This document shows, in pieces, positions 11,973 to 48,184 of a stretch of DNA of 64,000 nucleotides. The position numbers and the translations under genes are program-made. This stretch comes from an uncultured Phycisphaeraceae bacterium (GTDB taxonomy: Bacteria; Planctomycetota; B15-G4; JADJEK01). Location: positions 15,217 to 79,216 of the forward strand of contig CAZYQW010000147.1 of NCBI GenBank assembly GCA_964649825.1. Direction: 5' to 3'. Under the pieces are notes generated by a model. It was not told the origin of the DNA, did not search any database, and saw only the letters and a list, made by a program, of their open reading frames with translations. Position 1 is the stretch's first letter. The number at the start of each line of letters is the position of its first letter.

Positions 11973-12021
11973 CGCATCCTCTACGTGATTCCCGTGGTGC
12001 GACCGGCTACGATCCCGCGCC

Positions 12022-20548: not shown

Positions 20549-20731
20549 CGGACGAGGACCTCCGTCACCGGCCGCGCGCGAATCGCGGGCGGGACCCGCA
20601 GACGGCGCGGAGGATACCGAATCGCCGGAACTCCTCCCTCATCTTGCGTTTGAGCGAGGCGGCCGGCCGCCTCGATTCGCCGGCGTGGCGCAGGCCGTGC
20701 ATGTCGTCGGGATTGTGCTAGATTCTGTCAC

Positions 20732-22318
20732 GTGCGGACGCAGCTCATCCACCCCCCGGTCTACCTCAACGTCCACGCCATGACGGCCTTGCGGCCGAGC
20801 ATGCCGTTGGGGCTCGCCTACATCGCGGCGACCCTGGAGCAGGCCGGCCACTCGGTCTCGGTCATCGATGCGGTGGCCGAGGCGCCCGACCGCGTCACCA
20901 GCGATGGTCAGCTCCACCGTCTCGGCCTCTCGCCCGATGAGATCGCGGACCGGATCGCGCCCGACACCGAGGTGATCGGCGTCACCAATATGTGGACGTT
21001 CTCCTGGCCGCTGGTGCGCGACATCCTCCGCACGTTGAAGCACCGGCACCCGGACAAGGCCCTGATCTGCGGCGGCGAGCACTTCACCGGGCTGCCCCGG
21101 CTGTCGATGGAGCAGGCGCCGATCGATTACATCGTCCTCGGCGAGGGCGAGGAGACGATCGTCGAGCTGATGCGGACGCTCGAGAGCGGCGAGCGCGACC
21201 CGGGCGACATGCCGGGGGTGGCGTTCCGGCGCGACGGCGAGATCGTCCTGAACGAGCGTCGGGCGCGCGTGACGGCGGTCGACGCGCTGCCGTGGCCCGC
21301 GTGGGATCGGTTCGACCTCCGCGCGTACAACGAGCACGCGCTCCTGAACGGGGTGAACGCCGGCATGACGGTGCCGATCCTCGCCACGCGCGGTTGCCCG
21401 TACCAATGCACGTACTGCTCGTCGCCCGGCATGTGGACGACGCGCTGGTACCCTCGCGACCCGGTCGACGTCGCGGACGAGATCACGCACTACGTCAAGA
21501 CGTACGGTGCCCGCAACTTCCCGTTCCAGGACCTGACCGCCATCATCAAGAAGGACTGGATCGTCACGTTCTGCAACGAGATCATCCGCCGCAAGCTCGA
21601 CATCGTGTGGCAGTTCCCCTCCGGCACGCGCTGCGAGGTGATCGACGACGAGGTCGCGGAGCTCCTGCAGAAGTCCGGCGGCCGCCACCTCGCGTTCGCG
21701 CCCGAGAGCGGTTCCGAGCGCACGCGCAAGCTGATCAAGAAGCGGATGACGACGCAGGGCCTCTTCAACGCGGTCGAGGCGTCGGTCCGTCACAAGCTGA
21801 ACATCACTGCGTTCCTCGTCATCGGCTTCCCGCACGACACGAAAGAGGACATCCAGGAGACGGTCCGGTTCGTGCGGACGCTCGCGAAGAAGGGGATCGA
21901 CGACATCGCAATCGGCTTCTACTTCCCGATCCCCAACACCGAGATCTACCGGTTGCTCGTCGAGCAGGGCCGCGTCGACTATTCCGACAAGTGCCTGATG
22001 ACGCCGATCTTCGCGAACGACGAGAAGCTGCGGCCCGAGAACAACTACTGCGAGCACCTCACCGCGCGCCAGCTCACGCGGACGAAGTACTGGCTCCTGT
22101 TGAACTTCTACGGCCTGTCGCTGCTCCATCACCCCGGTCGATTCTTCAAGATGTTCGTCAACGTCGTCCGCGGTCGGGAGACACGGAAGATGGAGACGTT
22201 CCTGATCGAGCTGAAGCGCAAGTCGCTGCTCTGGGTGCGGAGCAAATTCCGCCGCGCCGAGCCGCCCGAGTCGACGCCCGCGTCTGAACCGGATCGGGAG
22301 AAGGCGGCGGTCTCCTGA
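20732..22318 (+). CDS. B12-binding-domain radical SAM protein
   Basis: PLGLAYIAATLEQAGHSVSVIDA, ICGGEH, TRGCPYQCTYC (CxxxCxxC) and ESGSER. GTG start. Confidence 0.9.
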   Translation: MRTQLIHPPVYLNVHAMTALRPSMPLGLAYIAATLEQAGHSVSVIDAVAEAPDRVTSDGQLHRLGLSPDEIADRIAPDTEVIGVTNMWTFSWPLVRDILRTLKHRHPDKALICGGEHFTGLPRLSMEQAPIDYIVLGEGEETIVELMRTLESGERDPGDMPGVAFRRDGEIVLNERRARVTAVDALPWPAWDRFDLRAYNEHALLNGVNAGMTVPILATRGCPYQCTYCSSPGMWTTRWYPRDPVDVADEITHYVKTYGARNFPFQDLTAIIKKDWIVTFCNEIIRRKLDIVWQFPSGTRCEVIDDEVAELLQKSGGRHLAFAPESGSERTRKLIKKRMTTQGLFNAVEASVRHKLNITAFLVIGFPHDTKEDIQETVRFVRTLAKKGIDDIAIGFYFPIPNTEIYRLLVEQGRVDYSDKCLMTPIFANDEKLRPENNYCEHLTARQLTRTKYWLLLNFYGLSLLHHPGRFFKMFVNVVRGRETRKMETFLIELKRKSLLWVRSKFRRAEPPESTPASEPDREKAAVS

Positions 22319-24781: not shown

Positions 24782-25825
24782 CTACTCTGCGTCCGCGAGC
24801 GTCAATCGGCAAACGGTCGTCGCTCCCGCCTGGACCTCGATCGAGCGGCGGCCGTAGCGTTCGATCGGCGCTCCCGTCTGCTCGTCGACGACGGCGAAGC
24901 TCGTGACGGGGAGCGCGGTCATGACGATTCGGACGTCGGTGGTCCCCGGTCGGTGGCCGGGGGAAGAGTGCCCCTCCTCGTACGGTTCGTACCCTTGCTG
25001 CGAAGCCTCGAGGACGTACGGCTCGTCCTGGGGGAGCAGGATCGTGAACCGGCCATCGTCACCGCTCGTCGCGCCGGCCCCTCGACCCGAGCCGCTGGGC
25101 CAACCCCAGACGCGGACGCCCGCCATCGGCGCACCCGATGCGGTCACGACGACGCCGGCGAGGACAGGCGCGTCTCGGAGCGCGAACTCGAGCCCCTCGG
25201 TGATCGCGCGCTCTTCCACGCGCACGTCCCGGATCGTCGTTCGGAGGGAAGCGACGTGGTGGCATAGGACCGCGTACGTCCCCGGCGGAACGTGTGCGAG
25301 GAGGAAGGTCCCGTCCACGTCCGACCGAGCGCTGGCGACGAATCCCCCGGGGAACGTGTCCTCGAGCGACACCTCGGCCGCGGAGATCGAGTTCCCCTCC
25401 TCGTCCACGACCCGGCCGGCGATGGCCCCCGTGTCCGGGAGGACCAGGTCGCCGAGATCGTTCGCTCCAGTGCGGAGCGGATCCTCGTCCCGTCCGCCGG
25501 CGACGCCGAAGATGCGTCCGGCGCGCCCGAACGACCATGCCGGAACGACGGTGAGCGAGACCCAGCTCGACGTGGGTCGCGGGACGTCGAACGCGAAGCG
25601 ACCGTCGGAATCGGTCTCGGTGGTGAAGCCATCGTCGGAAGGCGCGACTCCCGGTCCCCACGGCTCGCCGGCCGACGTGATGCGGACGTGGACGCCGGAG
25701 ATCCCCGCACCACGGACGTCGAGGACGCGACCCGTGATCTGTGAGCGGTCGTGCTCCGACACTTCGGCCCCCGTCGGCAGCAGGAGCAGCGAACCCACGA
25801 ACGAACCCGCAACGAGTCTCAGCAC
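24782..25825 (-). CDS. Carboxypeptidase-regulatory-like (prealbumin-fold) repeat protein, secreted
   Basis: Three full units (ITGRVLDVRGAGISGV, IAGRVVDEEGNSISAA, LAGVVVTASGAPMAGV), each with T.TD.DG.F-type motifs, and a fourth unit that stops short. Confidence 0.7.
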   Translation of the reverse strand: MLRLVAGSFVGSLLLLPTGAEVSEHDRSQITGRVLDVRGAGISGVHVRITSAGEPWGPGVAPSDDGFTTETDSDGRFAFDVPRPTSSWVSLTVVPAWSFGRAGRIFGVAGGRDEDPLRTGANDLGDLVLPDTGAIAGRVVDEEGNSISAAEVSLEDTFPGGFVASARSDVDGTFLLAHVPPGTYAVLCHHVASLRTTIRDVRVEERAITEGLEFALRDAPVLAGVVVTASGAPMAGVRVWGWPSGSGRGAGATSGDDGRFTILLPQDEPYVLEASQQGYEPYEEGHSSPGHRPGTTDVRIVMTALPVTSFAVVDEQTGAPIERYGRRSIEVQAGATTVCRLTLADAE

Positions 25826-26012: not shown

Positions 26013-27467
26013 TCAACGCTCGGCCACGCCGATCACGCGAAACCCGACATTGTCGCTGCGCGTCGCGCCGTCGATGACGTCGCGGTTGCTCGACCGACAA
26101 CCGGCGTAATTCGTCGCCCAACCGCCGCCGCGAACGACGCCGAGCTCGCCCGAGATCGCCGGCAGGGCGCCCGAGGGGAGACACCACTCCGCCACGTTAC
26201 CGTGGCAGTCGTACAGTCCCCACTGATTCGGTGCGAGCGAGGCGACGGGGAACGGTCCCACGCCTCCCGGACCGAGGTTCGACTCGAACCACGCGACCTC
26301 CGGCAGGCGATCTGCGAAGACGCGGCGATTCGTCGGAGTCAACGAAACCGCGATCGGAGCGCGAGTCGCGGCGCGGCACGCATACTCCCATTCGTCCTCG
26401 GTTGGGAGTCGAAACCGATAGCCGATGCCCTGCTCGCGGGCGAGCCGGCTGAGGACGAGGCAGAACCGCTTCGCCTCGACCAGCGTGAGCCCGTGAACCG
26501 GCAGCGACGGATCCTGGACGGACGACGGGTTCTGCCCGAGTACGCTCGCGTACGACTCCTGCGTTACCTCGGTCCGACTCATCAGCACCCCACCATCCAT
26601 GGCGAAACGCCTTTGCTTCTCCTGAGTGACGTCCGCGTCCTGGTCGATCTCGTCGGCGCCGGCCGGCCCGACGGCGGACATGCCGAGCGTCGTGACACCC
26701 GCGGGGATCGGAAGGAAGTCGACGCCCAGAAACGTAAGACGAGGAGGGGCGGGCGGAGGGATTTCCACTTGGCGGATCCAAACGAGATCGAGGAGCACGC
26801 CCGCGGCGGAGCTCGCGAGCTCGTCTGCCGTTCCGAGGACGAGTTCGCGCTCCTCCGTGCTGGCCGGCGCCTTCGCCGACGTCGACGACGCCAGATCCCG
26901 CGCATAGTCCAATCCGAGGAGCCGTCCCAACGGCAGGTCCGCGACCGCGAACCCGCGGAGGTTCTCGACCGCGACGATCGCTCGGCGATCCCCGGCAACG
27001 GCGGCATCGTTCAGGACGCGATGAGCCCGAGCGATACACCAGAACCACTCGCGGGACGACATGCGTTGTTCCGACAGCGACGATGCCACGTCGAACGCGT
27101 TCGGCCGAGTGACGAAACGGTACGCGGACAGCCAATGGTGCGCCGCGTCTCGCCATTCACGTCCCGCGCTCGATCGGGACAGGTCGTCCGGCTCCAATAG
27201 CCGATCGGGGCAGGCGTCGACGAAGGAAGTCGTCACCACGCCTCGTATCCGCAGCGCCCTCATCCAGCGGTCCCGTCGCAGATGCTGGTCCAGTGGGATC
27301 CGGAACGGGTACGCGTGATCCGTCGCTCGGGCGGTCTCGAACAGTGGCTGATCCCCTGCCGCGAATCTCCGGACCTCGGCCTGGACGACGACGCCAGCGA
27401 GAACGCTTGCCACCAGCGTCGTCACGATCGCGGCGACCGTGATCTTTCGCCACGCCACCGTCCTCAC
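26013..27467 (-). CDS. FGE-sulfatase/SUMF1-fold protein with an N-terminal membrane anchor (TagR-like)
   Basis: SRTEVTQESY, FRLPTEDEWEYACRA, PNQWGLYDCHGNVAEWC and RGGGW...R....VGFRV. GTG 27467 overlaps the upstream stop (GTGA). Confidence 0.8.
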   Translation of the reverse strand: MRTVAWRKITVAAIVTTLVASVLAGVVVQAEVRRFAAGDQPLFETARATDHAYPFRIPLDQHLRRDRWMRALRIRGVVTTSFVDACPDRLLEPDDLSRSSAGREWRDAAHHWLSAYRFVTRPNAFDVASSLSEQRMSSREWFWCIARAHRVLNDAAVAGDRRAIVAVENLRGFAVADLPLGRLLGLDYARDLASSTSAKAPASTEERELVLGTADELASSAAGVLLDLVWIRQVEIPPPAPPRLTFLGVDFLPIPAGVTTLGMSAVGPAGADEIDQDADVTQEKQRRFAMDGGVLMSRTEVTQESYASVLGQNPSSVQDPSLPVHGLTLVEAKRFCLVLSRLAREQGIGYRFRLPTEDEWEYACRAATRAPIAVSLTPTNRRVFADRLPEVAWFESNLGPGGVGPFPVASLAPNQWGLYDCHGNVAEWCLPSGALPAISGELGVVRGGGWATNYAGCRSSNRDVIDGATRSDNVGFRVIGVAER

Positions 27468-28726
27468 CGCTCGACGGGCGGCGGCCGTTTGACGATCGCC
27501 ACGAGGCGGAATCCGAGGGTCGCCTCGCGAGCCGTCGCCGGCATGCTCGTGCGGAAGGAGCACTGGAACTGCCAGGGGTTCTTCGTGGCGACATGGCCTC
27601 CCCGCACACACATCAAGCTGCTCTCCGAATGGGCCTTCTCCGATGACGGATCGTGCGTGATCCCGCCGCCTCCGACCTGCTTCCAACGATTGTCGGACCA
27701 AGTGTCCCAAGTCCACTCCGCGACGCCACCCGCAAGATTGGCGATCCCACTGTCGGTTCGGTCCCGCTCGAAGTCGTAGGTTCCACGCTTCCCCCTCACC
27801 AGATTGGCCATTGTGTCGGCGACGTCGAAGTCATCTCCCCACGGGAAAAGACGACTGGGCTCCGAACCCGATACCGCGGCGTATTCCCACTCCACTTCCG
27901 TCGGCAAGCGCACCGTCAGCGACGTCGTGTCGTCCCTGCGATACAACTTCCAAGAGTCGCTCAGCCTTCGAGTGAACTCATATGCGTCGGTCCAGTTCAC
28001 GAATCGCGCCGGCTCGTCGTCTCTCGCGGACTCGAGATCGTCGAGGGCACCCAGGTGCTCCGCGTAGGACCGATTGCTCCAGGAACGGCTCGGCTTCTCG
28101 ATCCCCATGACGACTCGGTACGCGAGATCGGAGACTTCCGTGGCCCCGATGTAGAACCCATCCGAGATCGTGACCGGCACCAGTGGCGATGAGAGCGCCC
28201 CGGCGGGCGACATCGAATTCAAGACGGTCTGAGCTGGTTCGAGTCGGTTGTCTGTCGGATCGATCCCGACCGTGCACGTTCCCGGATCGACCCGCACGAA
28301 CCGGAGTTCGCAAGTCGTCCCACGTGCGGTCACCACGATCTTCGCCGTACCGGCTTCGTCGTCTTCGACCCATGCGATCGACGGCTCGCGCGCGGTCCGC
28401 TGACGCTCGGGGGAAGCGCGTACATTTTTCTGAAGTGCACGCAGCGCGGACAGCACGGCCTCGATCCGTTGCGTCTGCTCCACGTGCCTCCCCAGGAGTT
28501 CCTCGACCTGCGTGGCCAACAAGTCGACCTGACGCACGAGTTCGTCCGCTCCGGCGAGCTTCGAATCCGGTGACGGTCGCTCGGTCGTGTCCTCCGCTCC
28601 GCCGGAGGACGTGATCCGAGCACGTGGACTCCGCGGATCCGGCTGGGCCAGGGTCGCGCAGTCCGACGAAAGACAACCGACCGTCAGCACGACGGCGATC
28701 GGGAACGTGTGAATCGGTCTCGACAC
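27464..28726 (-). CDS. Secreted FGE-sulfatase/SUMF1-fold protein with an N-terminal coiled coil (TagR-like)
   Basis: Signal-like N-terminus; coiled coil ELVRQVDLLATQVEELL...; IGATEVSDLAY, RLPTEVEWEYAA, NLAGGVAEWTWD and VRGG...TLGFRLV. Confidence 0.8.
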   Translation of the reverse strand: MSRPIHTFPIAVVLTVGCLSSDCATLAQPDPRSPRARITSSGGAEDTTERPSPDSKLAGADELVRQVDLLATQVEELLGRHVEQTQRIEAVLSALRALQKNVRASPERQRTAREPSIAWVEDDEAGTAKIVVTARGTTCELRFVRVDPGTCTVGIDPTDNRLEPAQTVLNSMSPAGALSSPLVPVTISDGFYIGATEVSDLAYRVVMGIEKPSRSWSNRSYAEHLGALDDLESARDDEPARFVNWTDAYEFTRRLSDSWKLYRRDDTTSLTVRLPTEVEWEYAAVSGSEPSRLFPWGDDFDVADTMANLVRGKRGTYDFERDRTDSGIANLAGGVAEWTWDTWSDNRWKQVGGGGITHDPSSEKAHSESSLMCVRGGHVATKNPWQFQCSFRTSMPATAREATLGFRLVAIVKRPPPVER

Positions 28727-28798
28727 TTCGTGGTTCTCCTCTTCGGTGCCTACCCAAACGTGGATCCCCGCTGCGCGTTCTCTGTACTTCCTCGTCGT

Positions 28799-31700
28799 TC
28801 ATGCCGCCTGCTCGATGAGCTTCACCGGTTCGAACCTCGCCGCCTTGAGGCCCGAGTAGCAGAACGCGAAGACGCAGCTCGCGCACACCATCGCGAGCGC
28901 CTTCAGGCAGTCGGAGAACTCGATCCAGCAGGTTCCCGGGCTGACCAGCGCGTTGATCCCGGCCTGGACCAGGTAGCCGCCCGAGATGACGAGGGCCGAT
29001 CCGATTGCCATTAGGAAAAAGTTCCGGACGGTTATGACCCAGAGCACCGCAGCGGGCGTGAGTCCGACCAGACGGAGAACGCCGATCATCGGCATACGCT
29101 GAAAGACGTTCATGACGGTGACGATGAAGATCGTGACGATCGCCGCGAGGAACGTCGCCCAGTAGATGATCGACACGAGTCGCTCCAGGATCGCGGCGTT
29201 GCCCTGCAGCTCTTTCACCGCGAACACGCCCGGCGCGTGCACCTCGAAGTCCGCTGCCAGCACCTGACGAAGCACGGGGATGTCCTCGATGTCCTTGGGG
29301 TAGACGAACGCCGTCGTGAACTCCAGATTTCCCCGGAGCGCGGGATGGAACTTGCCGGTCGCTCGATCGAAGACGACCGTTCCGATCTCCTGGGCGCGGT
29401 GGAGCGCGACGAGGTCCTCGGGTAGGTACACCCAGTCGCGAAGCGGGTTGTCGAGGTCGTCGAGGTCCACGGGGCGGCGGCCGACCGCGACCTCGTACGT
29501 GACGTCGTCCGCGACCCTCACCTCGACTCCCTCTTCGAACGCCAGGCTCAGCTCGCTGGGCACGGGGAGCGGGTGAGAGTCGTCGGGCGGCATCAGAGCC
29601 ACCATGGGTAGCAACGTCTTGGCCACGGGGCGCGCGAACAGGTCGGAGATGCCGTCGAGGAACCGGGGCTGTTTCGCTTCCCTCGCCCGGCTCTTCGTGT
29701 GGACGTAGTACGGAAGTCTCCCCCGCAGCTCCTGAGGTAGGCTGATCGCCCGGAAGGACGACCCGCCGATCGAAACGTCGATCGGCGGATTGAATCCGAG
29801 GCAGAACGCCTGTTCGTTTTCGTTTCTTCCCGACCCTTCCCGCAGACGTCTCCAAAGGCTCCTTCGCGCGCCGTCGGTCAGGACGACCGGTCGCCGTTGG
29901 CCGGAGTCGTCACGAAGGCGGCTCACGACGGCCGCGCACCTGGCGTACGACGGGAACTTCGGGGCGTCCGCGCCGGTCATCCGGGGTCGGTCGAGATACC
30001 CGAAGAACGTCGCTCGCGGATCATCGCTCGCGATCTCGACACACTCGAGTTCATAGGACTCGAGCAGTTGGGCCGCCTCGAGGTCGAGCAACGGCTCGTC
30101 CGGGGACCGCTGTGAGTAGAGGAGGATCGACTCGTAGGCGTATTCCACGTCGCCATACCGGTTCTCCGTCCCCGGAAGATGGAACTCGGTCGGCGCCGAA
30201 AGTCCGCCGCGAATGCCGGAGTCGTCCGTGATGTCGACGGGGAACCCCTGCCGGAAGATCTCGAGCTTCTCCAGCAGACGCAGCGGAACATACGCCGTTT
30301 GGTAGCGAGGATCGGACGTGATGAGGTCGAGGATCCGGACGGGGACCCAGTGGAATTCGCCGCCGTTGTGAACGCCGAGCTCCAGATAGCCGGCGCTCAG
30401 CGTCGCGTTGGCTGGGACGTGTCGAGACTCGACCGCGTAACGCAGCAGTTTCTCCGCGTGCTCGCGATAGACGACGATCTCCAGAGCACGCCCCGTCAGC
30501 GGCCGAAGCCCCAGCGTATCGATCAACGGATCCCGCTCGTCGAGCAGGTAGATCTGATAGTTGTCCGCCTCGACGTCGCCTTCTCGCTTGAGGAACCCCC
30601 GAAACCATTCCGATTCTTCGGACTGCCCATTCAGGAACTCCGAGTCGAGCGCCGGAATCGGATCCACGTCGCCGGGAGTCCGGAAACGGAGTTTGCCGTT
30701 GATCGAACGTCCGAGAGAGATTGCGCGAATCGCGGGGAACTCGGACTTGAGCTGCTCGCAAAGCGTCCCGTTGAGCGCGGTCGACTCGCGCCACGGCGTG
30801 ATGCGCAGGCGCGACAGGGTCGGGCTCTGACGGATGTTCTGCGTGAGCCGCTGGATCAGCCCGTTCCTGAGCCCGAACAGTAGCAGGAGCGGGAGCGTGA
30901 GACACAGAACGGTGAGAATGAACGAGGTAACGAGGTTTCGGTCGTGGTACCCGTCCTTGATGGCGACCTTGGTGTACATGCCGAACCGCCCGAGAAGACT
31001 GCTTCGATCGAGCTGCGAGTTTCCGTCGCTCGAGAGTTCGTCCGCCCACACGCTCTTCCGCTCCTCGATCGATTGTGAGTCCCGGATGATGACCGCCGTC
31101 GAACGCGACGTCCGCTCGTAGTCCACGGTTCCCAGCCACTGGCGGTCCTCGAACGAGCGGAGCCTCAGGATCGGAAGACCGAAGTGTCGCGCGAGCTCCT
31201 CGTCATGCGTGACCATGACGATCGTGCTCTGCGACTCGAGTGAATCGCGCATCGCGAGAAGAGCTCGGACGGCCGCGAACGCGCTCTGCTGATCCAGGTT
31301 GTTCGTCGGTTCGTCCGCGAAGACGAGCGTCGGATTGTGGACGATCGAACGCGCGAGGAGCACCCGCTGTCGCTGGCCGCCCGAGAGAGCGGATCGCCGC
31401 GAGCCGCGGATTCGGTCGACGAGCTCTTCGCCGTTGGTCCCGTTCGACCACGTCGGGCGCTCGTCGGCGGGATCGAACAGGGAATGGAAAAGGTTCTTCT
31501 CGTACTCGAGCGCCTTTCCACGCTTGGCAACGTCCCGGAGCTGGCCCGTGGCGTGCAGCGGCAGCGAGACGTTCTCGGCCGCGGTGAGTGCGCCGAGAAG
31601 CTCGCCCGACTGCAACGCGAACCCGATGTGATGGCGCCGCACGACCTCACGGATGTCGCTCGGTACGGCCCGCTTCGCGTTCTGGATCACGAGAGGCTCC

Positions 31701-32002
31701 GCCGATACCTCCGGAACGCTCAACGTGAAGAGATCGACGTGGGTCGGCTTCCTCAGCAGCCCCATCACCGTCAGTAAGGTCGTCTTGCCGCACCCGGACG
31801 GCCCCACCAGGCAGACGAAGCTTCCCCGCGCGATCTCGAGGTGGGGAACGTGAAGCAGGAACGAGTTCTGCGGCCGGATCGGCTCGACCGAGGCGAGCAC
31901 TTCCTCCGCGCTGGCTCCATGAGGGGGCCGCCAACCATTCGGCCCGTTGAAGAAGTGCCACAGGTTGGAGATGTGGATCGCCGGCGCGTTGTCGGAGCTC
32001 AC
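28799..32002 (-). CDS. Fused ABC ATPase + FtsX/MacB-type permease (TagT/TagS-like)
   Basis: GPSGCGKTT, LSGGQRQRV, VFADEPTNNLD and VTHD. TM1 (LTLPLLLLFGLRNG) is followed by a periplasmic region of about 560 aa and three C-terminal TMs. Start GTG 32002 with AAGGGG upstream. Confidence 0.85.
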   Translation of the reverse strand: MSSDNAPAIHISNLWHFFNGPNGWRPPHGASAEEVLASVEPIRPQNSFLLHVPHLEIARGSFVCLVGPSGCGKTTLLTVMGLLRKPTHVDLFTLSVPEVSAEPLVIQNAKRAVPSDIREVVRRHHIGFALQSGELLGALTAAENVSLPLHATGQLRDVAKRGKALEYEKNLFHSLFDPADERPTWSNGTNGEELVDRIRGSRRSALSGGQRQRVLLARSIVHNPTLVFADEPTNNLDQQSAFAAVRALLAMRDSLESQSTIVMVTHDEELARHFGLPILRLRSFEDRQWLGTVDYERTSRSTAVIIRDSQSIEERKSVWADELSSDGNSQLDRSSLLGRFGMYTKVAIKDGYHDRNLVTSFILTVLCLTLPLLLLFGLRNGLIQRLTQNIRQSPTLSRLRITPWRESTALNGTLCEQLKSEFPAIRAISLGRSINGKLRFRTPGDVDPIPALDSEFLNGQSEESEWFRGFLKREGDVEADNYQIYLLDERDPLIDTLGLRPLTGRALEIVVYREHAEKLLRYAVESRHVPANATLSAGYLELGVHNGGEFHWVPVRILDLITSDPRYQTAYVPLRLLEKLEIFRQGFPVDITDDSGIRGGLSAPTEFHLPGTENRYGDVEYAYESILLYSQRSPDEPLLDLEAAQLLESYELECVEIASDDPRATFFGYLDRPRMTGADAPKFPSYARCAAVVSRLRDDSGQRRPVVLTDGARRSLWRRLREGSGRNENEQAFCLGFNPPIDVSIGGSSFRAISLPQELRGRLPYYVHTKSRAREAKQPRFLDGISDLFARPVAKTLLPMVALMPPDDSHPLPVPSELSLAFEEGVEVRVADDVTYEVAVGRRPVDLDDLDNPLRDWVYLPEDLVALHRAQEIGTVVFDRATGKFHPALRGNLEFTTAFVYPKDIEDIPVLRQVLAADFEVHAPGVFAVKELQGNAAILERLVSIIYWATFLAAIVTIFIVTVMNVFQRMPMIGVLRLVGLTPAAVLWVITVRNFFLMAIGSALVISGGYLVQAGINALVSPGTCWIEFSDCLKALAMVCASCVFAFCYSGLKAARFEPVKLIEQAA

Positions 32003-32093
32003 TGCTCGACCCCTTGTCGTCAAGTTACGTGGTGCATTGCGCCGCAGTTCCGAACGGAAGCGACGGCGCAACTCGGAAACGAACGATGCGCAA

Positions 32094-34097
32094 TCAGGTC
32101 ACGTCGACGATCTCGATGAACGCCACCGCGTCGTCCGCTTCCTGATTGCCGGGGAGATCGAACCACAGCCCGGCGTCCTCGGTTTGCTCGCGCAGCCGCT
32201 TGGCCATGCTGTCCAGGTTCTCGACCATCCGCTTTCGGTCGGCTGCGGTCTGCGCCGCGATCTGCTCCGGGGTGAGGCTCATCGTCTTGGTCGTGATCGG
32301 GAGGCCGCCGACGATCTGGAACACCTCGCTGAGCGGCGTGGTGGGACTGATGTCGCGATCGATGCCGACCGCCGCGAGCCGTTGCTGGAGGTTCGCGACG
32401 AGCGCCTGCGCGTTGATGTCCGTACCGCCGATCTCGCCTGCCACGAACGACAGCGTGTTCTCGAGCCGCTTGCACCGCCTCTTGCTGGTCAGGAACTTCT
32501 CCTTGACGGTCTTCGCGCCGTAGGTGTCGTATCCCGACACCCACCCCGAGTGCATTCGCGTCGCGTTTCTGCCGGCGGAGTCGTCTTGCGGTTTGAGCAT
32601 CTCCATCATCACGACGAACGGTCTTGGCACCCCGGCGAACTCCGGAGCGCCGACATCGAGCTCGTAGATGTCGTCGCTGCCGCCCGTGATCAGGCTCTGC
32701 ACCGATCCCGCGCCGCCGATCTGCAGCCGGATCGTAGCCAGCAACTCCTGCTTGAACCCTCCCGCGTTTCCCGGCTGGAGCTGCAGGTGCCGACCCTCGA
32801 AGAAGCCCTTCGTGAGGGTACTGAACTGTTGCGTTCGAAGCGCGTGGAGCACGTCCCCGTTGTTCTCTGCCATGATCTCGGCCGCGAACACCATGATGGC
32901 GCTCTTGACCCCGTCGATCGTGGCGACCGTGTCGTCCACGGGTTGCGCCAGGTCGACGATCTCCGCGGCACGGAGCTTCGAGCTGTTCCATTCAGGGTGA
33001 CAAGCGGCGTCGTAGCCGTTCTCGTCGCCCACGAGCACCAGCGTCTTGAACGCGATCGGGCTCCAGTCCATGCCCGTCACGGCGCGGTGGACGCCGCCGA
33101 GGACGTCCTCGCCGTCAGCGCCGCCTCCCGTCGCTTTGATCGTTCGAAGGCGGCGCAGGAACTCGCCGTGATCTGCACCGTCGCTCAACGTGCACTGAAT
33201 CGCCACCTCCGACGGCCCCTGATACGTAACGATGCCGAACCGGTACTTGTCCTTGACGTTCGCGTCGCCTTCCCCGAGTTCCTTCGACACCTGCTCGATC
33301 GTCGCCACGACGGCGGCGATGAACGGATCCATCGAGCCACTCGCGTCGACGCAGAAGACGACGTCGACCTTGAATTCCCCAAGGGTCTTCCTGAACTCAT
33401 CCACCTCTTTGTCCGGGGCGTCGACGACGTCGTTTCCGGCCACAGTCCGGGGGATCGTGATGAACGCAACCTCGAAGAGATCATGCTTCGTCCCGTCCGC
33501 GGCGGTCTGATCGGGCTTGGCGTCGATGACGGGCATGACGAATCCATTGTTCCCGAGCCGCTTCGGCTCCATCGCAATCGCTATCTCGTCGTCCTGGACC
33601 TCCGGATCCGGGTAGTTCGAGAAGCCATTGTTCCAGTCGCCGTCGTTCTCATAGAACCGGACGCGCTGGCGCGCGGGATTCCTCGGATCTCTAGGATCGC
33701 CGCGAGGCATGAAGGCCAACGCCTCCCGATGCCACCATTCGATGACGTCACTACTGTGAATGAAGCCGTATTGGGTCTGCCTCTTCGCACGTTCCGCCGT
33801 ATGAACGCGATACCAGTGACCGTTCGCGTCCTCGGCGATCTTGTATTGCTTCGGATCGTCGGGACTCGGCAGCACGTAGAAGAACTGCATCGGGGCGACG
33901 GTCTGTCGGAGCAGGCGGTTGTCGGCTCTAGGCTCCTTGTAGACGCTGGCCTCCCTGCGGATGATGATCTTCAAGGGGGCGGGCCGTCCGGCGACCTCGA
34001 CGACGTGCTCGTAGGTATCCGTCTGCGCCTGGGCGGTAGGGATCGCTCCCAGGGACGCCAGGAGCAGCACTTCGATCGGGTAATTGCGTGCGAGCAT
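32094..34097 (-). CDS. Secreted vWA-domain protein resembling the extracytoplasmic region of T6SS kinase PpkA; no kinase domain
   Basis: Signal peptide ending AQA; SH3-like N-terminus (WYRV...GFIHSSDVIEW); MIDAS DVVFCVDASGSMDPFI; RFGIVTY; EDVLGGV..A...MDW; LVLVGDE; C-terminal GLP and LWF motifs. Confidence 0.75.
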   Translation of the reverse strand: MLARNYPIEVLLLASLGAIPTAQAQTDTYEHVVEVAGRPAPLKIIIRREASVYKEPRADNRLLRQTVAPMQFFYVLPSPDDPKQYKIAEDANGHWYRVHTAERAKRQTQYGFIHSSDVIEWWHREALAFMPRGDPRDPRNPARQRVRFYENDGDWNNGFSNYPDPEVQDDEIAIAMEPKRLGNNGFVMPVIDAKPDQTAADGTKHDLFEVAFITIPRTVAGNDVVDAPDKEVDEFRKTLGEFKVDVVFCVDASGSMDPFIAAVVATIEQVSKELGEGDANVKDKYRFGIVTYQGPSEVAIQCTLSDGADHGEFLRRLRTIKATGGGADGEDVLGGVHRAVTGMDWSPIAFKTLVLVGDENGYDAACHPEWNSSKLRAAEIVDLAQPVDDTVATIDGVKSAIMVFAAEIMAENNGDVLHALRTQQFSTLTKGFFEGRHLQLQPGNAGGFKQELLATIRLQIGGAGSVQSLITGGSDDIYELDVGAPEFAGVPRPFVVMMEMLKPQDDSAGRNATRMHSGWVSGYDTYGAKTVKEKFLTSKRRCKRLENTLSFVAGEIGGTDINAQALVANLQQRLAAVGIDRDISPTTPLSEVFQIVGGLPITTKTMSLTPEQIAAQTAADRKRMVENLDSMAKRLREQTEDAGLWFDLPGNQEADDAVAFIEIVDVT

Positions 34098-34215
34098 CTC
34101 CGTTCTCCGTTAGGGTCGTGGCGAGCTACAATTGCCTTCGGCTCGACCACGGCCTACTCAATGACATGACGCCGGCTGGACCAGCGCGGCGTGCGAAATC
34201 GCTTCCGTTCGTTCG

Positions 34216-36087
34216 TCAACGGACCCACTCGGCGAGCACACGAAAGCCCACGCTCGGTTTTGCGCTCGCCTTGTCGATGACGTCGCGATTGCTCGATCGA
34301 CAGCCCTGATAGGACGTCGTCCAGCCCCCGCCCCGCGTCGGAGCCGCGTGCGCCGGCACCGGCGGGAGGCTCTTCGACGGCCGACACCACTCACAGACGT
34401 TTCCGTGGAAATCGTGGAAACCCCATCGATTCGGACGGAGCTGACCGACGGTTTGCGGACCGTGCCGCGAGTTGCTTTCAAAGAACGCGATCTCACGAAG
34501 GCGCTCAGAGAGTGGGCGGTAGTTCGGAGTGCCATCGACTTCGAACAGATTGATCGGCAGCGGAGACCCCGCGCGACAGACGTACTCCCACTCGTCTTCA
34601 TCCGGCAACCGGAAGACGAAGGGGAGGCCGGCGCTCTGTACGGCCGTCGAGAGGCTCGCACAGAAGGCCTCGGCTTCGTCGAAGGTCACGGAACGTGCCG
34701 GCTGTCGTTGTCGACTCGGAGGCGACGGGACCCGGTGCTGTGCGACGTAGTCGTACGTCGCCTGGGTGACCTCGACCTCGGCCATGAGCTTGAAGGCGTC
34801 CATACGGTACGGGCGCGACGGTTCGTCAGCGGCGCTGGCGTCCGGATCGACTTCGGAACGACCCGCCACGCCGACCGTCGACGTGCCGAGGGAGCCCGTT
34901 CCCGGCGGGATCGGTGCCAACTTGAGCTCCCACGGTTGATCCGGCCACAGCGAGAGACCGCGTCCGTGTAATTTGGTCTTGAGCTTCAGAGCGAGTGCTG
35001 CGTCCTCGGACTTCGTCGCGATGTCGTAGAGCCACGGATCGACGGGTCCCGTCTTCTTGTCGAGTGCGTCGGCATAGCGCAAGACGAGCGACCGGAGTTC
35101 GGTGGTCGTCAACGCCGCTCGCGTCTGAACGTCGCTCGTGGCCTCCCCTTTGGTGGATGCAAGGCGCAACACGATCGCGAGCTCTGATTGATTGCCGACC
35201 ATCGCCTCGGCGATGGTCGGCCAGAGGTCGAGTTTGACGTACCCTTTGGCGTCCGTCTGGACGATGGTCGTCGATTCCGGCCGATCCTCTACGAACCACT
35301 CGATCGACATGTCGGCTGCCGGGCGCGAGCCGACGTCGACGATCTCGTGGATCCCAAGCTCCGCGGGTGGTTCGGACGCCATCCCGGCTAACAGAACGAC
35401 CGGCGTCGAGAAGCCCAGAGCGAGCGTGTCCATCGTCAAAGCGCTCGTCAACGTGACGGCGTCGGTTGCGGCGAGGACGGTTGCCGTCACGGCGTCCAAG
35501 GTCAATCCCGTCGCCAGGGTGGAGACGTCGAACGCGCCGAGCGAAGCCGTGATCGCGACGTCCGGTCCGAGGAGGGCGACGCTCATCACGGTGTCGATCA
35601 CGGGTGGGATGATGAAGAGGACCAAGCCCGACAGGTATAGAGGCGTCAATGCGGCCGCGACGTCGGTGTAACTGTCATTGTTGTAGGCGGCGTGCGTCAC
35701 GGGAAAGACGTGGTCGCCGTGGTACCACTGCGTCAAGAGGAACGGATAGTGGCATGCCACGGGGAACAAGCCACCACCCCGGAGCCCGGTCAGAGGGAAT
35801 GCATCGCTCTCGAACCACTTCTTGGTGAGGAAGATCGATTGCCAACCTCTCGTGGCCGATTCCTCGGAAGCGGAGAACGAGATTTCCGTGTCTTGCGTCG
35901 AGATGACGCGCTCCTCGGATACGTAGAGTCGACCGAGGGCCGGCCAGGCTCCAGCTCCGGTGACGCGCAAATCCTTGTTGAACGAAAGTGCGGCCGCGCG
36001 AACCTCGGGGACCGGGTTCGGCACGCTCTCGTGCTCGTACGCGAGATGGCAGCTCGTGAGCAGGAGCGCGAACGAGCACCGGGCCAT
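34216..36087 (-). CDS. Lipoprotein with a hydrophobic 11-residue-repeat segment and a C-terminal FGE/SUMF1-fold domain
   Basis: MARCSFALLLTSC contains the lipobox LTS-C (alternative start ATG 36183). C-terminal AEVEVTQATY, FRLPDEDEWEYVCRA, PNRWGFHDFHGNVCEWC and RGGGW..VGFRV. Confidence 0.75.
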   Translation of the reverse strand: MARCSFALLLTSCHLAYEHESVPNPVPEVRAAALSFNKDLRVTGAGAWPALGRLYVSEERVISTQDTEISFSASEESATRGWQSIFLTKKWFESDAFPLTGLRGGGLFPVACHYPFLLTQWYHGDHVFPVTHAAYNNDSYTDVAAALTPLYLSGLVLFIIPPVIDTVMSVALLGPDVAITASLGAFDVSTLATGLTLDAVTATVLAATDAVTLTSALTMDTLALGFSTPVVLLAGMASEPPAELGIHEIVDVGSRPAADMSIEWFVEDRPESTTIVQTDAKGYVKLDLWPTIAEAMVGNQSELAIVLRLASTKGEATSDVQTRAALTTTELRSLVLRYADALDKKTGPVDPWLYDIATKSEDAALALKLKTKLHGRGLSLWPDQPWELKLAPIPPGTGSLGTSTVGVAGRSEVDPDASAADEPSRPYRMDAFKLMAEVEVTQATYDYVAQHRVPSPPSRQRQPARSVTFDEAEAFCASLSTAVQSAGLPFVFRLPDEDEWEYVCRAGSPLPINLFEVDGTPNYRPLSERLREIAFFESNSRHGPQTVGQLRPNRWGFHDFHGNVCEWCRPSKSLPPVPAHAAPTRGGGWTTSYQGCRSSNRDVIDKASAKPSVGFRVLAEWVR

Positions 36088-36908
36088 GTGTCTGGTTCGA
36101 CCCGCGCGACGAGGCGGGGCGAATTCTCGGAACGACGTCGTCGCTCGCACCAGCACGTCGCGCGTTGTGCGGTACATTTCCATGAGGGTTCGCCGGAACT
36201 ATCGCGACTCCATGTGGCTGTGAACGATCCATGACGAACGTCACGGGTCGATCGACTGCACGACGCCGTCGTCAAGGGTTCTCGATCGAATCCGTAACAC
36301 GTCGAGCGGGCGGCGCGGGTTCTCACTGACAGGAACGATGTCGCTTGTGGAACCCGCCGCCTTTTCTTGACCGAGACGTTCGATTCCGTCGCACAGAGGA
36401 AGCGGGCATTGATTCGACGGCCAAACTCCTGTTGCGCTCTGCGGCCGCTGATCCCGGGGCCGCTGGTAAAGAGGGCTCGATCGGCGGCGACGGTGTCGCG
36501 GCGGCGCGACGTGGGCTCGCCGCGGTCACAGCCACGGCGCGGCGGATGCCGCGGAATGCCGCCGCAGGGGATCGCGGCCGAGCTTGGCGGGTACCTGCAC
36601 GCCCGGTCCGGTCGGGGTTGTCGCCGTTGCATTTGTCGATCTCGAGGTCGCTGCCGATCGACGTCAAGGTGAACGCGACGCCGTTGTCGCCGTTCGCGCG
36701 CTTCGGGACGACTGTCGAGTCACGCTCCACTGGTCGACATCGAGGTCGTCGGCGCCGCCGCCCGTCGCGATCGAGAGGCGCCGATGGTGGGACACGACTG
36801 GATGACGGCCTCGTGGTCCCTTGCCGAGCCGCACGTCGACGCGCGACGTGGAATGGAACCTAGACCCCATTCCTTGCATGGGATCGGCGATTCCCATGGG
36901 TCAGCCGG

Positions 36909-37637
36909 TCAGCGGTTGATCGCGAGCTCGCGTTCGAGCCGTGAGCGGTACGCCACCGACTCGTCGCGCCGGCCGAGGAACTCGAACGAGAGCGCGAGCT
37001 GGTAGAGGGCCTCGCAGCGCGCGCTGCGCGTCGCCTCCTTGAGACGGAGCACCTCGTGCGCGGCCTCCGTCACTTCGGACCACTCGCCGCGTCGCGTCCG
37101 CTGGATGGTGCGGATCATGCGCACATCGTGGGCCATCGTCGTCGGGGACACGATCGTGGGTTGCGGCGTCGGCGAAAGACCCGACGTCAGCGCCGAGCCG
37201 TAGGCCATGAGGCCGACGCCGATCAGGTGGTGGATCGGATCGCGGGACATGGCCGGAGGATCCTCTTCGATCGCCTCATCCACGTCGACCACGCCGACCG
37301 TCTCGTCTACCGCGACCGCGACTTCGCCGGCACTCTCGGATCGATGGGCGCGATGGTCGCCATGGTCGAGGGGCGACGGGTCGAAGCGGAACGAGGCGCC
37401 GACGGCGATCAGGAAGAACGCCGCCGCCGCGTACGCCAAGGGCGCGGGTCGGAGGACTCGCCAACCGCGCCGGCGCCGTGACGGCATGGCGGGAGTCACC
37501 GTCGACCACGCGTCCTTCATCCAGCGCAAGGTGGCCTGGGTTCGCGGATCGGCCTCGTCCAGCCGGTCGCCCCGTTCGGGAGGCTCGACGGCCCGCCATG
37601 CCTCTCGGAGGCGCTCGATGGCATCTCGATCGTTCAT
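36909..37637 (-). CDS. Putative anti-sigma factor (single TM, C-terminal TPR-like helices)
   Basis: Translationally coupled (ATGA) to the ECF sigma; TM LAYAAAAFFLIAVGASF; C-terminal EALYQLALSFEFLGRRDESVAY. Confidence 0.55.
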   Translation of the reverse strand: MNDRDAIERLREAWRAVEPPERGDRLDEADPRTQATLRWMKDAWSTVTPAMPSRRRRGWRVLRPAPLAYAAAAFFLIAVGASFRFDPSPLDHGDHRAHRSESAGEVAVAVDETVGVVDVDEAIEEDPPAMSRDPIHHLIGVGLMAYGSALTSGLSPTPQPTIVSPTTMAHDVRMIRTIQRTRRGEWSEVTEAAHEVLRLKEATRSARCEALYQLALSFEFLGRRDESVAYRSRLERELAINR

Positions 37638-38224
37638 GATGAAAGACCTCCACCTCCTCCGGCGCGGGCGACCTCGGGAATCCGGTGGCCGAGGATCGTG
37701 CGCAGCCGCCGCCGCGCCAACGAGAGGAGCGACCGCACCGTCCCCTCGGTGATCCCCAGGACCTCCGCGACATCGGGGCTCTCCGCCCCTTCCAAGTCGC
37801 GCAACACGAACACTTCGCGCTCCCGATCCGTCAACTTCGCCAGGCTCTCGCGCAGAATCGTGTGCACCTCGGCCGCGGCGGCGACGTCGTGGGGGTCGGG
37901 CAGGAGATCGAGGTCGGTCACCGCGGCCGACTCCTCGGCCCGTCTCCGGGTCGCCCGACGCCGCAACCGGTCGCGGCAGAGGTTGGCCGCGACGGTGTTG
38001 CGCCAGGTGGTGAACCGACGCGACGGATCGAATGCCGCCAACCGATCGATCAACTGGAGCATGGCGTCCTGCGCCACGTCCTCGGCTTCCGCCTCGTCGG
38101 CCAGGAAGCCGAAGCAGAGGCGGAAGACGCGGGGATGCTCACGTCGATAGAACTCGTCCTGGGCGGCGGAGTCGCCGGCCAGGACGCGCTCCAGCAACGG
38201 ATCGTGGCTGAGGTCCGGTGTCAT
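37634..38224 (-). CDS. ECF (sigma-70 group 4) RNA polymerase sigma factor
   Basis: Region 2 EAEDVAQDAML...FTTWRNTVAANLCRD; region 4 LTDREREVFVLRDLEGAESPDVAEVLGITEGTVRSLLSLARRRL. Start ATG 38224. Confidence 0.9.
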   Translation of the reverse strand: MTPDLSHDPLLERVLAGDSAAQDEFYRREHPRVFRLCFGFLADEAEAEDVAQDAMLQLIDRLAAFDPSRRFTTWRNTVAANLCRDRLRRRATRRRAEESAAVTDLDLLPDPHDVAAAAEVHTILRESLAKLTDREREVFVLRDLEGAESPDVAEVLGITEGTVRSLLSLARRRLRTILGHRIPEVARAGGGGGLSS

Positions 38225-38313
38225 GTCTCTGGGGAGAGTACGGCGGTCGACCGCCGGGCGCTGAAGGGAAAATCGAGCCCTGGCGTTCGACGAACGAGCG
38301 GAACCGACCCACG

Positions 38314-38339
38314 GGAACGTGGGATTGCTTATTCTCGTC
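38314..38339 (+). promoter_or_regulatory. Possible ECF-type promoter (GGAAC-N17-CGTC)
   Basis: GGAAC at 38314-38318 and CGTC at 38336-38339, about 105 nt upstream of the 38446 gene and next to an ECF sigma gene. Pattern match only. Confidence 0.3.
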
Positions 38340-38445
38340 GACTCTCTTCGATCCGCGTTACGAATCTCGTTTCGCTGCGTCCCTCGTGCACGCGATCGGT
38401 CCCGCTCACGACATTCGAGCCGTACGCGCACGCAAAGGAGGAGTC

Positions 38446-43133: not shown

Positions 43134-43616
43134 ATGATGAAACGACAGACGCAGATCTCGGTCTTCACGGACAATCGCCCGGGGACACTGGCGCGGATCA
43201 CGGCGGCGCTCGGCAAGCGCGGAGTCAACATCATCGGGGTCGCGGCCTGGGGCGAGACGGACCATGGAGTCATCCGCATGGTGGTCGACGAGCCGCTGAA
43301 GGCGCTCCATCTGCTCGGGGAGCACGGGATGATGTGCACCGAGTCGAAGGTGCTTGGGATCCACCTGCCGAACACGCCCGGCACGCTGAATCAGGTCGCG
43401 AACCTGCTCGGCAAGAAGAAGGTGAACGTCGATTACTGCTACGGTTCGGACTCCCCCGAGGGCGGCGTGCTGTACCTCAAGGTCGACGACCTGAGCGCGG
43501 CGGAGGAAGCGCTGAAGAACAGCTCGCTCACCGCGCCGAAGGGTTCGAAGGCCCCGCGGAAGGCGGCGAAGCCGGTGGCGAAGAAGGCGGCGAGGACGAA
43601 GGCGGCGAAGGGATAG
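43134..43616 (+). CDS. Double ACT-domain protein with an Ala/Lys-rich tail
   Basis: QISVFTDNRPGTLARITAALGKRGVNI and LPNTPGTLNQVANLLGKKKVNVDYCY; tail KAPRKAAKPVAKKAARTKAAKG. Confidence 0.85.
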   Translation: MMKRQTQISVFTDNRPGTLARITAALGKRGVNIIGVAAWGETDHGVIRMVVDEPLKALHLLGEHGMMCTESKVLGIHLPNTPGTLNQVANLLGKKKVNVDYCYGSDSPEGGVLYLKVDDLSAAEEALKNSSLTAPKGSKAPRKAAKPVAKKAARTKAAKG

Positions 43617-46383: not shown

Positions 46384-46396
46384 CGCCGCCGTTCCG

Positions 46397-48028: not shown

Positions 48029-48184
48029 ATGAGACGGTGCGAGATGCTCCTGTGCGAGTGCGAGGTGGAGGAGTCGAAGGTCGTGGAGCGGGACGGCGGC
48101 TTCTTCTGCTCGGAAGCATGCGCTCGTGACCAGGCCGACGATGATGGCTTCTGCGGCTGCACCCACGAGGTCTGCGTCGACTGA
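48029..48184 (+). CDS. Bacterial metallothionein-like protein 2 (51 aa, acidic)
   Basis: MRRCEMLLCECEVEESKVVERDGGFFCSEACARDQADDDGFCGCTHEVCVD; GGGAGG upstream of ATG 48029; same Cys/His positions as protein 1. Confidence 0.85.
   Translation: MRRCEMLLCECEVEESKVVERDGGFFCSEACARDQADDDGFCGCTHEVCVD

Follow-up and report, generated by a model that had tools for sequence, protein, structure and literature searches.

What is a gene set that resembles the sensor arm of a type VI secretion system (T6SS) doing in a stretch of DNA that encodes no T6SS? The question is raised by 64 kb of an uncultured Phycisphaeraceae bacterium (part of contig CAZYQW010000147.1, hereafter the window), in which five minus-strand genes between positions 26013 and 36183, here called g1 to g5, encode in order a protein with the fold of the formylglycine-generating enzyme (FGE), a protein with a domain of the von Willebrand factor A type (vWA), an ATP-binding cassette (ABC) ATPase fused to its permease, and two further FGE-fold proteins (Table 1). 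The TagQRST proteins and the PpkA kinase of the Pseudomonas aeruginosa H1-T6SS sense outer-membrane damage, through a signal that is proposed to be normally confined to the outer membrane (a 2025 atomic-force-microscopy study, PMC11881912). PpkA carries a periplasmic vWA domain (PMC3224232), and TagR, TagS and TagT fall into COG1262, COG4591 and COG1136, respectively (a 2026 review, PMC13584744). My answer, a tentative one that falls a little short of an even chance, is that g1-g5 encode a self-contained envelope complex, a distant relative of the TagR-TagS-TagT and PpkA-ectodomain cassette that would work without a kinase and independently of T6SS and Srf proteins. It is based on homology, membrane topology, gene order, the loss of catalytic cysteines and the lack of kinase and T6SS genes in the window.

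The initial annotation had described five co-oriented genes in this order with a GTGA overlap, and open reading frames (ORFs), Pfam matches and the sequence itself bear this out. The stop codon of g4 (TGA, 27466-27464) overlaps the start codon of g5 (GTG, 27467-27465), and because this overlap fixes its start, g5 spans 26013-27467 and encodes 484 aa. The remaining gaps measure 118 bp (g1-g2), 22 or 91 bp (g2-g3, depending on the start chosen for g3) and 72 bp (g3-g4). The G+C content of third codon positions is coding-type in all five frames (0.77-0.85; 0.79 in g1). Promoter and terminator scans returned nothing informative. The annotation had also listed the kinase, PppA, Fha and all tss genes as absent, and Pfam scans of the predicted genes agree: the 64 kb contain no Hanks kinase, PppA/PP2C phosphatase, Fha, TagF or tss gene, and no Pkinase domain was found in g1-g5 or in the sizeable window ORFs scanned. 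The PrkA gene at 59920-62154 belongs to a family other than the Hanks kinases. Searches for SrfB and SrfC likewise gave no match in the window. A tryptophanyl-tRNA synthetase encoded in the window shows 71% identity to a counterpart in a Planctomycetota metagenome-assembled genome, which points to a planctomycete as the probable host.

The link to PpkA runs through g2. This 667-aa protein has a normal signal peptide by hydropathy scan, as expected of the secreted vWA protein first proposed, and three domains: an N-terminal beta domain (residues ~29-213) with a conserved WWHRE motif, the vWA domain (243-440) and a C-terminal helical/beta domain (445-667). The vWA domain has a DxSxS metal site, of which D251, S255, E330 and D358 do not vary among 36 aligned family members. 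In an AlphaFold2 (AF2) model (mean per-residue confidence, pLDDT, 84) the vWA domain is flanked by a beta-rich N-terminal and a mixed C-terminal domain; in a fold search integrin I domains matched only the middle vWA domain, and no solved structure among the top matches corresponded to the N- or C-terminal domain. Close relatives are few, only six (~42% identity) among 5.8 billion proteins. A profile built from the alignment of g2 with these six (A1), searched against 1.84 billion representative proteins, returned 619 matches with E <= 1e-10, of which 53 reach E <= 1e-30. Most of these matches are 600-700 aa long and cover the whole profile, so that a three-domain module, and not a mere vWA domain, defines the family.

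In some of the longer matches the module lies at the C-terminus behind one membrane helix. P0219 (E 1.7e-24; profile positions 45-662 on residues 380-992) begins with a Pkinase domain at 29-282, P0167 also has an N-terminal Pkinase domain and P0174 a TIR domain in the same place, so that kinase or TIR, membrane helix and module follow one another; P0171 has a signal-peptide-like N-terminus and then a PG_binding_1 domain. At the locus of P0219 (L012), tagF is followed by the kinase-module gene and then by those for the ABC ATPase, the FtsX permease and the FGE protein, as in T6SS clusters. Searching plasmids with P0219 by tblastn identified Tistrella mobilis pTM1 (L099), on which RefSeq annotates tssH, tagH, tssJ, tssK, tssL, tssM and tagF, followed by genes for a PP2C phosphatase and a Ser/Thr kinase, next the vWA, ABC ATPase, FtsX permease and SUMF1-family genes, and lastly vgrG. 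Here a gene of its own encodes the vWA module, which begins with a signal peptide. With the database size set to 177,635, A1 matches this T6SS-encoded protein at E 1.5e-18 and the modules of Srf-linked loci at E 9e-24 to 5e-37, collinearly over profile positions ~110-660. Thus, with pTM1 and L012 as T6SS references in place of P. aeruginosa PA0070-PA0074, the profile comparisons support g2 as a whole-length homologue of the PpkA-type ectodomain and not of its vWA domain alone.

The division of labour in Tistrella deserves a note of its own. At L099 (11884-15287) the function of PpkA is split between a 475-aa kinase, which has a membrane helix and, in the periplasm, a Sel1-like tail, and the secreted vWA-module protein that follows it. 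Where Tistrella has the kinase, Srf-linked loci have a Sel1 protein that lacks one.

The second line of kinship is the permease part of g3. The protein has 1090 aa as the longest ORF or 1067 aa from the called start at 32002, and its ATPase motifs read as intact (Walker A GPSGCGKT, signature LSGGQ, Walker B FADEP, H-loop THD). A hydropathy scan places helices at 380-398 (transmembrane helix 1, TM1), 968-986, ~1000-1030 and 1055-1073, giving the MacB-type topology of an ATPase domain, TM1, ~565 periplasmic residues and TM2-4. The TagT- and TagS-like parts are thus fused in one protein, as had been proposed, and only 10 full-length relatives were found. Its AF2 model (pLDDT 69) has full-length MacB structures as top PDB matches in Foldseek (5lil at E 3e-21, then 5lj7, 5gko and 5nik), and no MacB_PCD Pfam match was detected in g3. 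Comparisons of each component with Tag-type and generic proteins were made at equal database size throughout. Residues 358-1090 match the TagS of L012 at E 3e-9, a Klebsiella pneumoniae Srf-linked permease at 3e-6 and the Tistrella TagS at 2e-3, whereas solved MacB, BceB and YtrF all score E >= 1 and Lol proteins are not among the matches listed. This supports a specifically Tag-like membrane and periplasmic part, nearer to TagS-type permeases than to the solved MacB, BceB or YtrF.

Set against the wider type VII ABC group (MacB, LolCDE, FtsEX, BceAB, YbbAP), g3 shares the order of ATPase, TM1, periplasmic domain and TM2-4 and has an ATPase of the MJ0796/LolD/BceA/MacB group, but differs in a periplasmic domain that exceeds theirs two- to threefold in size and has no sequence match to solved permeases. 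The ~565 residues also exceed the ~200 of TagS-type permeases, which are ~400 aa long. Neither a MacA/TolC-type nor a histidine-kinase partner lies near g3; no HlyD/MacA-type adaptor or OEP/TolC-type domain was found among the Pfam-scanned neighbours.

The three FGE-fold proteins are of two conserved types. Protein g4 (420 aa), predicted to be anchored in the envelope, combines a lipobox-like LTVGC, a coiled coil and a C-terminal FGE-fold domain; the orthologous proteins of L008 and L009 are anchored in the membrane by their N-terminus. It is of the type that always follows the ABC gene (the first FGE), and its nearest relatives stand as first FGE gene in L009, L008 and L010. Protein g5 has a membrane helix at 9-27 preceded by just 8 cytoplasmic residues, followed by a C-terminal FGE-fold domain, and is predicted to be anchored in the inner membrane. 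It belongs to the second type, with 50-51% identity to the second FGE of L008 and L009, both of which have lipoboxes. Protein g1 has 655 aa, or 623 aa from an internal ATG at 36087, and only the latter start exposes a lipobox (LLTSC). Its N-terminal ~420 residues have no known domain and no relative across the fetched loci, and its FGE domain shows 47% identity to g5, compared with 43-45% when aligned to the second FGE of L008 and L009. A 70-nt DNA repeat of 76% identity is shared by g1 and g5. From its sequence g1 is thus best classed as a local, lineage-specific paralogue of the g5 type and not as a conserved member. The triplication noticed at the outset is therefore real, with g4 and g5 as the two conserved types; the protein types assigned with it fared unevenly, since g5 is membrane-anchored as described, g1 is a lipoprotein only from the internal start, and g4 is not simply secreted. 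Between its N-terminus and its FGE domain (residues ~170-260) g1 also has a long, hydrophobic, repeat-like stretch rich in T, A and L (for example ...TLDAVTATVLAATDAVTLTSALTMDTLALG...), for which no relatives occur among the fetched loci.

Cys336 and Cys341 of human FGE form its copper-binding pair, and Cys336 is required for catalysis. In alignments with the human FGE segment and TvpA, the equivalent of Cys336 is gone from g1, g4 and g5, and that of Cys341 is kept in g1 and g5, as in the non-enzyme TvpA, and gone from g4. Because the Cys336 equivalent is missing in all three, their FGE domains are predicted to be binding domains and not enzymes. In losing the pair they resemble the non-catalytic FGE-fold proteins TvpA, PorK/GldK, PvdO and pFGE/SUMF2. 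The closest solved relatives of g5 are the ligand-binding TvpA (2y3c, E 7e-12), PorK (E 5e-9) and pFGE/SUMF2, and that of g4 is the FGE-like domain of the kinase ToxD. NCBIfam assigns no specific family, GldK and PvdO scoring far below their cut-offs. The window differs in having no diversity-generating retroelement and, in Pfam scans of its predicted genes, no type IX secretion genes. A retroelement acting on the TvpA-like g5 and g1 was considered and rejected: no reverse transcriptase was seen, and the sole repeat reflects paralogy, with mixed mismatches.

Does this combination of genes hold together elsewhere? The order vWA, fused ABC, FGE, FGE recurs in a Planctomycetes metagenome-assembled genome (MAG, L008) and in a JGI contig (L009), and in a more distant form (L010 and L011) a vWA-module homologue is followed by an ABC gene that continues into an FGE domain. 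Because the order recurs on unrelated metagenome and MAG contigs, the arrangement is not a product of chance. For a census, a P0130-type alignment (A4) was searched against one genome per species, which gave 80 loci (an A1 scan of genome contigs had no matches); six-frame ORFs of all loci were then compared with profiles for FGE, ATPase, FtsX, kinase, TagF, SrfB, SrfC, the TagQ-like lipoprotein and the full module. The counts refer to the 39 non-redundant loci with an end-to-end module and to features within 9 kb. An ATPase domain is present in 35 of the 39, and ATPase, FtsX and FGE occur together in 28, the incomplete loci being mostly cut by contig ends. As a control, FtsX or FGE lies nearby in none of 53 loci that match only the generic vWA part (0/53). 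A kinase was found at 6/39 loci, TagF at 2/39 (only L012 and L099), SrfB/SrfC at 6/39 (only L025, L027, L033, L041, L057 and L098), a TagQ-like lipoprotein at 9/39 and a fused ABC at 7/39. Among the loci sampled the cassette is commoner without a kinase or T6SS (25/39) than with one.

These loci come from Planctomycetota, Eisenbacteria, Alpha- and Gammaproteobacteria, Desulfovibrionaceae and Nitrospinota and show two layouts. Layout A (the window, L008, L009, L013, L017, L019, L020 and L063, the last from an Isosphaeraceae bin; Planctomycetota, Eisenbacteria and relatives) has a large or fused permease, two or three FGE genes, often two modules, and no TagQ. Layout B (Paracoccaceae, Chromatiales, Ectothiorhodospiraceae, Desulfovibrionaceae, Nitrospinota, Arboricoccus and Rhodospirillum) has gene sizes like those of the T6SS-linked cassettes of L012 and Tistrella pTM1, and a Gly-zipper lipoprotein gene often comes after them. 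In five genome loci and on K. pneumoniae plasmids the layout B cassette directly follows srfA-srfB-srfC. The FGE proteins follow the same division: those linked to T6SS and Srf form their own tight group (~48% identity), and in the fused-ABC layout g4 clusters with the first FGE gene and g5 and g1 with the second.

Some loci wire the same parts differently. L096 has FGE, FGE and then the TIR-module protein P0174; L097 has a kinase-module, a CHAT gene, two free modules and an ABC gene; and in L018 a kinase-FGE fusion adjoins a free module. Because the kinase is fused to either partner in these relatives, the FGE protein and the vWA module may act as a receptor pair, as the gene fusions suggest. 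A kinase beside the vWA gene of L009 was considered as a split PpkA and set aside, since it is a fragment that ends just past DFG and continues into out-of-frame sequence, and is incidental.

How does the cassette compare with systems already described? TagQRST-PpkA has the same set encoded by adjacent genes, namely the periplasmic vWA module of three domains, an ATPase resembling LolD, an FtsX permease and a protein with the FGE fold, and through the Tistrella and L012 references its module is homologous end to end and its permease specifically related. It differs in possessing a Hanks kinase, PppA, Fha, TagF and tss genes, all lacking in the window, in encoding TagS and TagT separately where g3 joins ATPase and permease, and in having one TagR where the window has three FGE-fold proteins of two types. 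Other relatives are the Srf-linked cassettes. For Desulfovibrio and Bilophila genomes that have no T6SS, Campbell et al. (2013) described homologues of tagQ/R/S/T and ppkA beside srfABC (PMC3608642), and a September 2026 preprint describes a cassette of a Lol-like ABC, a vWA and a SUMF1-like protein that flanks srfABC (10.64898/2026.09.18.752743), with Haemophilus parainfluenzae and Xenorhabdus stockiae as examples. This analysis adds K. pneumoniae plasmids and Arboricoccus pini. Such cassettes are Tag-like and kinase-less, some of their genomes are T6SS-free, and their vWA module is free and secreted as in the window. They differ in following srfA-srfB-srfC and a Sel1 protein and in having a split ABC, one TagR-type FGE and usually a TagQ-like protein, none of which the window has. 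In view of the 2013 report, the description of the locus as a new system was overstated. The layout without Srf, with a fused ABC and with several FGE proteins nevertheless appears undescribed in the literature searched, in which no paper joins FGE-sulfatase, VWA and FtsX, and the end-to-end homology between a free module and the PpkA ectodomain appears undescribed as well. Kaur et al. (2020) treat vWA ternary systems of another kind, which are cytoplasmic and have a MoxR or STAND NTPase partner, whereas g2 is periplasmic and no MoxR adjoins it; that paper does not mention FtsX, an ABC ATPase, SrfB or PpkA (PMC7159879).

On one of the K. pneumoniae plasmids (L098; NZ_CP138739.1, 146098-162953) SrfA, SrfB, SrfC, a hypothetical protein, vWA, ABC ATPase, permease and a SUMF1-like protein follow one another, and the plasmids are of IncFIB type. 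A PpkA-like query matched 114 Klebsiella plasmid records, and the top matches listed cover the ectodomain only.

Several results weigh against kinship with the Tag and PpkA proteins, or against an autonomous unit. The similarity to T6SS-linked proteins is remote: by pairwise BLASTP g2 has 19% identity to the Tistrella vWA protein at E 0.01, and because g2, g3 and g4 all match the Tistrella proteins weakly in this way, the relationship is one that needs profiles. The kinship that the initial annotation read from motifs holds for the module and the permease and is not borne out for the other two components, which are no closer to Tag proteins than to generic families. The ATPase domain of g3 scores 69-87 bits with TagT types and 78-89 bits with MJ0796 and LolD, and would be classed as generic, nearest MJ0796/LolD. 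Similarly, g4, g5 and g1 score 15-33 bits with TagR-type proteins and 33-48 bits with solved ToxD, TvpA and PorK, which marks them as probably generic FGE-fold proteins and not specifically TagR-like. The TagQ counterpart implied by the comparison is missing too: phmmer with the TagQ-like protein of L031 (Pfam Gly-zipper/Rick_17kDa_Anti), a query that matched 12 proteobacterial-type loci, found no Gly-zipper lipoprotein among ORFs of at least 40 aa in the window or the fused-ABC loci. The module can also occur alone, because in a Pirellulaceae locus (L016; OZ247499.1, 9785-14043) two tandem full-length modules have no ABC or FGE gene within 8-10 kb. P0017 (L010, 10001-14326), an apparent ABC-FGE fusion that might have served as Rosetta-stone evidence, counts for little on account of a lipobox (LALASC) at the expected fourth helix and a match to the first part of the FtsX profile only; an error of sequencing or gene calling, or a read-through, may have joined two genes here. 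Finally, the window represents 64 kb of a genome, and a distant kinase, T6SS or Srf partner may exist.

If g1-g5 do form a unit, what would it do? My best guess is an ATP-driven periplasmic machine for envelope surveillance or repair. Type VII ABC proteins turn cytoplasmic ATP hydrolysis into mechanical work in the periplasm (MacB, LolCDE, FtsEX, BceAB), and from this and the anatomy of the proteins I infer the contacts between the parts, the ligand and a function in repair or expulsion. A homodimer of g3 in the inner membrane would carry no substrate across but pass an ATP-driven movement to its ~565-residue periplasmic domain, which would partner the lectin-like FGE-fold receptors g4, g5 and g1, held at the membranes, and the soluble metal-site vWA module g2. 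The complex would bind a ligand that turns up in the periplasm once the outer membrane has been breached or perturbed, either a displaced envelope component or a foreign molecule, and would then extract, dislodge or expel it at the cost of ATP. Because the ATPase is the sole cytoplasmic part and no signalling domain is encoded, periplasmic work is the likely output here; elsewhere the same unit would be wired to a Hanks kinase (T6SS), SrfABC, TIR or CHAT.

The alternative that survives best is that the operon is a sensor arm only, whose complex alters a partner upon damage as TagQRST does PpkA, the output being a distant PpkA-like kinase and T6SS, SrfABC, or a sigma factor pair encoded upstream. 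Kinase and vWA module are indeed separate genes in the Tistrella T6SS cluster, genes on the same strand 725 bp upstream encode an extracytoplasmic function (ECF) sigma factor and a protein of anti-sigma-like topology, and the window covers 64 kb of a 143 kb contig. I nevertheless regard this as rather unlikely, in that most of the 39 loci have no kinase, T6SS or Srf gene within ~10 kb, relatives of the ECF sigma factor never adjoin the cassette in other loci, and the ATPase is the only cytoplasmic domain in g1-g5.

A Lol-like role in sorting or surface display, in which the ABC protein draws FGE lipoproteins out of the inner membrane and hands them on, along with the vWA protein, to act at the outer membrane or cell surface as adhesins or lectins, seems improbable. 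It would suit vWA and FGE/C-type-lectin folds, which are typical binding modules, the lipoboxes of g1, g4 and the second FGE of L008 and L009, and an ATPase nearest to LolD/MJ0796. TagS and TagT also belong to the COG families of LolE and LolD (COG4591 and COG1136; PMC13584744), and the Srf-linked permease is called LolF-like in the 2026 preprint (10.64898/2026.09.18.752743). The size of the periplasmic domain speaks against it, being far above that of LolC/E and without a sequence match to any solved Lol protein, as does the finding that one FGE protein per system is held by a membrane helix and not by lipid.

No easier to credit is an envelope immune module against phage or contact attack, in which an invader's protein would be caught in the periplasm and neutralised by the FGE and vWA proteins and then cleared by the ABC protein. 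The fusion or adjacency of relatives to TIR, CHAT and kinase domains, which are of conflict-system type, the nearness of g5 to TvpA and the lower G+C content of the cassette (64-66% at 26-36 kb, against ~70% in the window) would fit, and FGE-fold domains have been read as invader-binding in vWA ternary systems (PMC7159879). However, PADLOC defence models had no match save a generic ATPase, no diversity-generating retroelement or template repeat was found, the sole repeat being that of the g1/g5 paralogy, and the TIR-STAND gene of the window is 12 kb distant with unrelated genes between. Very improbable, and largely refuted, is a chance gathering of true FGEs that mature planctomycete sulfatases, a MacB-like exporter and a generic vWA protein: planctomycetes have many sulfatases and the Pfam matches are to generic families, but the Cys336 equivalent is absent from all three FGE domains and the Cys341 equivalent from g4, neither a sulfatase gene among the neighbours scanned nor a MacA/HlyD-type adaptor nearby was seen, and the gene order is kept across phyla and found at 0/53 controls.

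The PpkA ectodomain, the TagS-type permease and FGE-fold partners travel as one unit, and three things so far poorly understood fall into one family open to comparative study: the sensor arm of the T6SS, SrfABC's accessory genes (those on many K. pneumoniae plasmids among them) and orphan planctomycete operons. The stand-alone cassette would be the natural minimal version in which to seek the ligand and the core activity. A bolder proposal, possible though on balance unlikely, is that the module, FGE receptors and type VII ABC protein are an ancient, portable receptor of envelope breach, spread over at least five phyla with T6SS/PpkA, SrfABC, TIR, CHAT or nothing as its output; the stand-alone planctomycete form would then represent the core activity, in which a danger ligand in the periplasm is captured and removed at the cost of ATP, and the tit-for-tat sensor of the T6SS would be derived. 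A parallel exists in BceAB, in which flux-sensing derived from a resistance pump.

Table 1. Genes of the cassette and of its surroundings in the 64 kb window (Pfam matches unless otherwise noted)
Feature	Position	Strand	Description
g1	34216-36183	-	FGE-sulfatase PF03781, residues 425-650, E 8e-24
g2	32094-34097	-	VWA, residues 245-378, E 1.5e-8
g3	28799-32071	-	ABC_tran 77-257 and FtsX 968-1082
g4	27464-28726	-	FGE-sulfatase PF03781, residues 182-409, E 8e-30
g5	26013-27467	-	FGE-sulfatase PF03781, E 4e-26
Possible sixth gene	24782-25825	-	Three CarboxypepD_reg domains, PF13620 E 7e-32
Single-pass membrane protein	36909-37637	-	242 aa, anti-sigma-like topology, one membrane helix after ~60 residues
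ECF sigma factor	37634-38431	-	Sigma70_r2/r4/ECF
Glycosyltransferase and YfhO-like genes	1-13182, 43528-46428, 55627-58554		Including a 1212-aa multi-glycosyltransferase protein and two large YfhO-like membrane proteins
Heparinase II/III gene	17897-20638
Radical SAM gene	20654-22318	+	B12-binding
TIR + nSTAND1 NTPase protein	48145-51600	+	1151 aa, TIR N-terminal, E 5e-59
PrkA, DUF444 and SpoVR-like trio	59920-63998	+	AAA + PrkA C-terminal; YeaH-like; extends past the window end

The sigma/anti-sigma-like pair (36909-38431) is co-oriented with the cassette. In the fetched loci, relatives of the sigma factor were found only by unrelated generic vWA genes and none beside a cassette; the pair is a possible local regulator outside the conserved set. 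On the other side, the CarboxypepD_reg gene is also co-oriented and starts 187 bp 3' of g5. Its product has no relative across the fetched loci, and its membership of the cassette is doubtful. A 2104-aa CarboxypepD_reg/Big_7/CARDB protein is encoded upstream of the cassette in Chromatiaceae L031 (3281-9595), with relatives in L022 and L032, and no direct sequence similarity between it and the window protein was detected; the presence of such giant proteins near these three cassettes may be coincidence.

Further away, the B12-binding radical SAM gene has counterparts near the cassettes of L001-L004 (L001, 6477-8069; phmmer E 7e-22). Orientation and intervening genes differ, and this proximity possibly reflects shared regional ancestry rather than function. 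The TIR-nSTAND1 protein has a conflict- or defence-type architecture and, as mentioned, is separated from the cassette by 12 kb of unrelated genes. The PrkA trio is a conserved stress/starvation operon. Together with the heparinase gene, the glycosyltransferase and YfhO-like genes make the region around the cassette appear rich in cell-surface polysaccharide functions.

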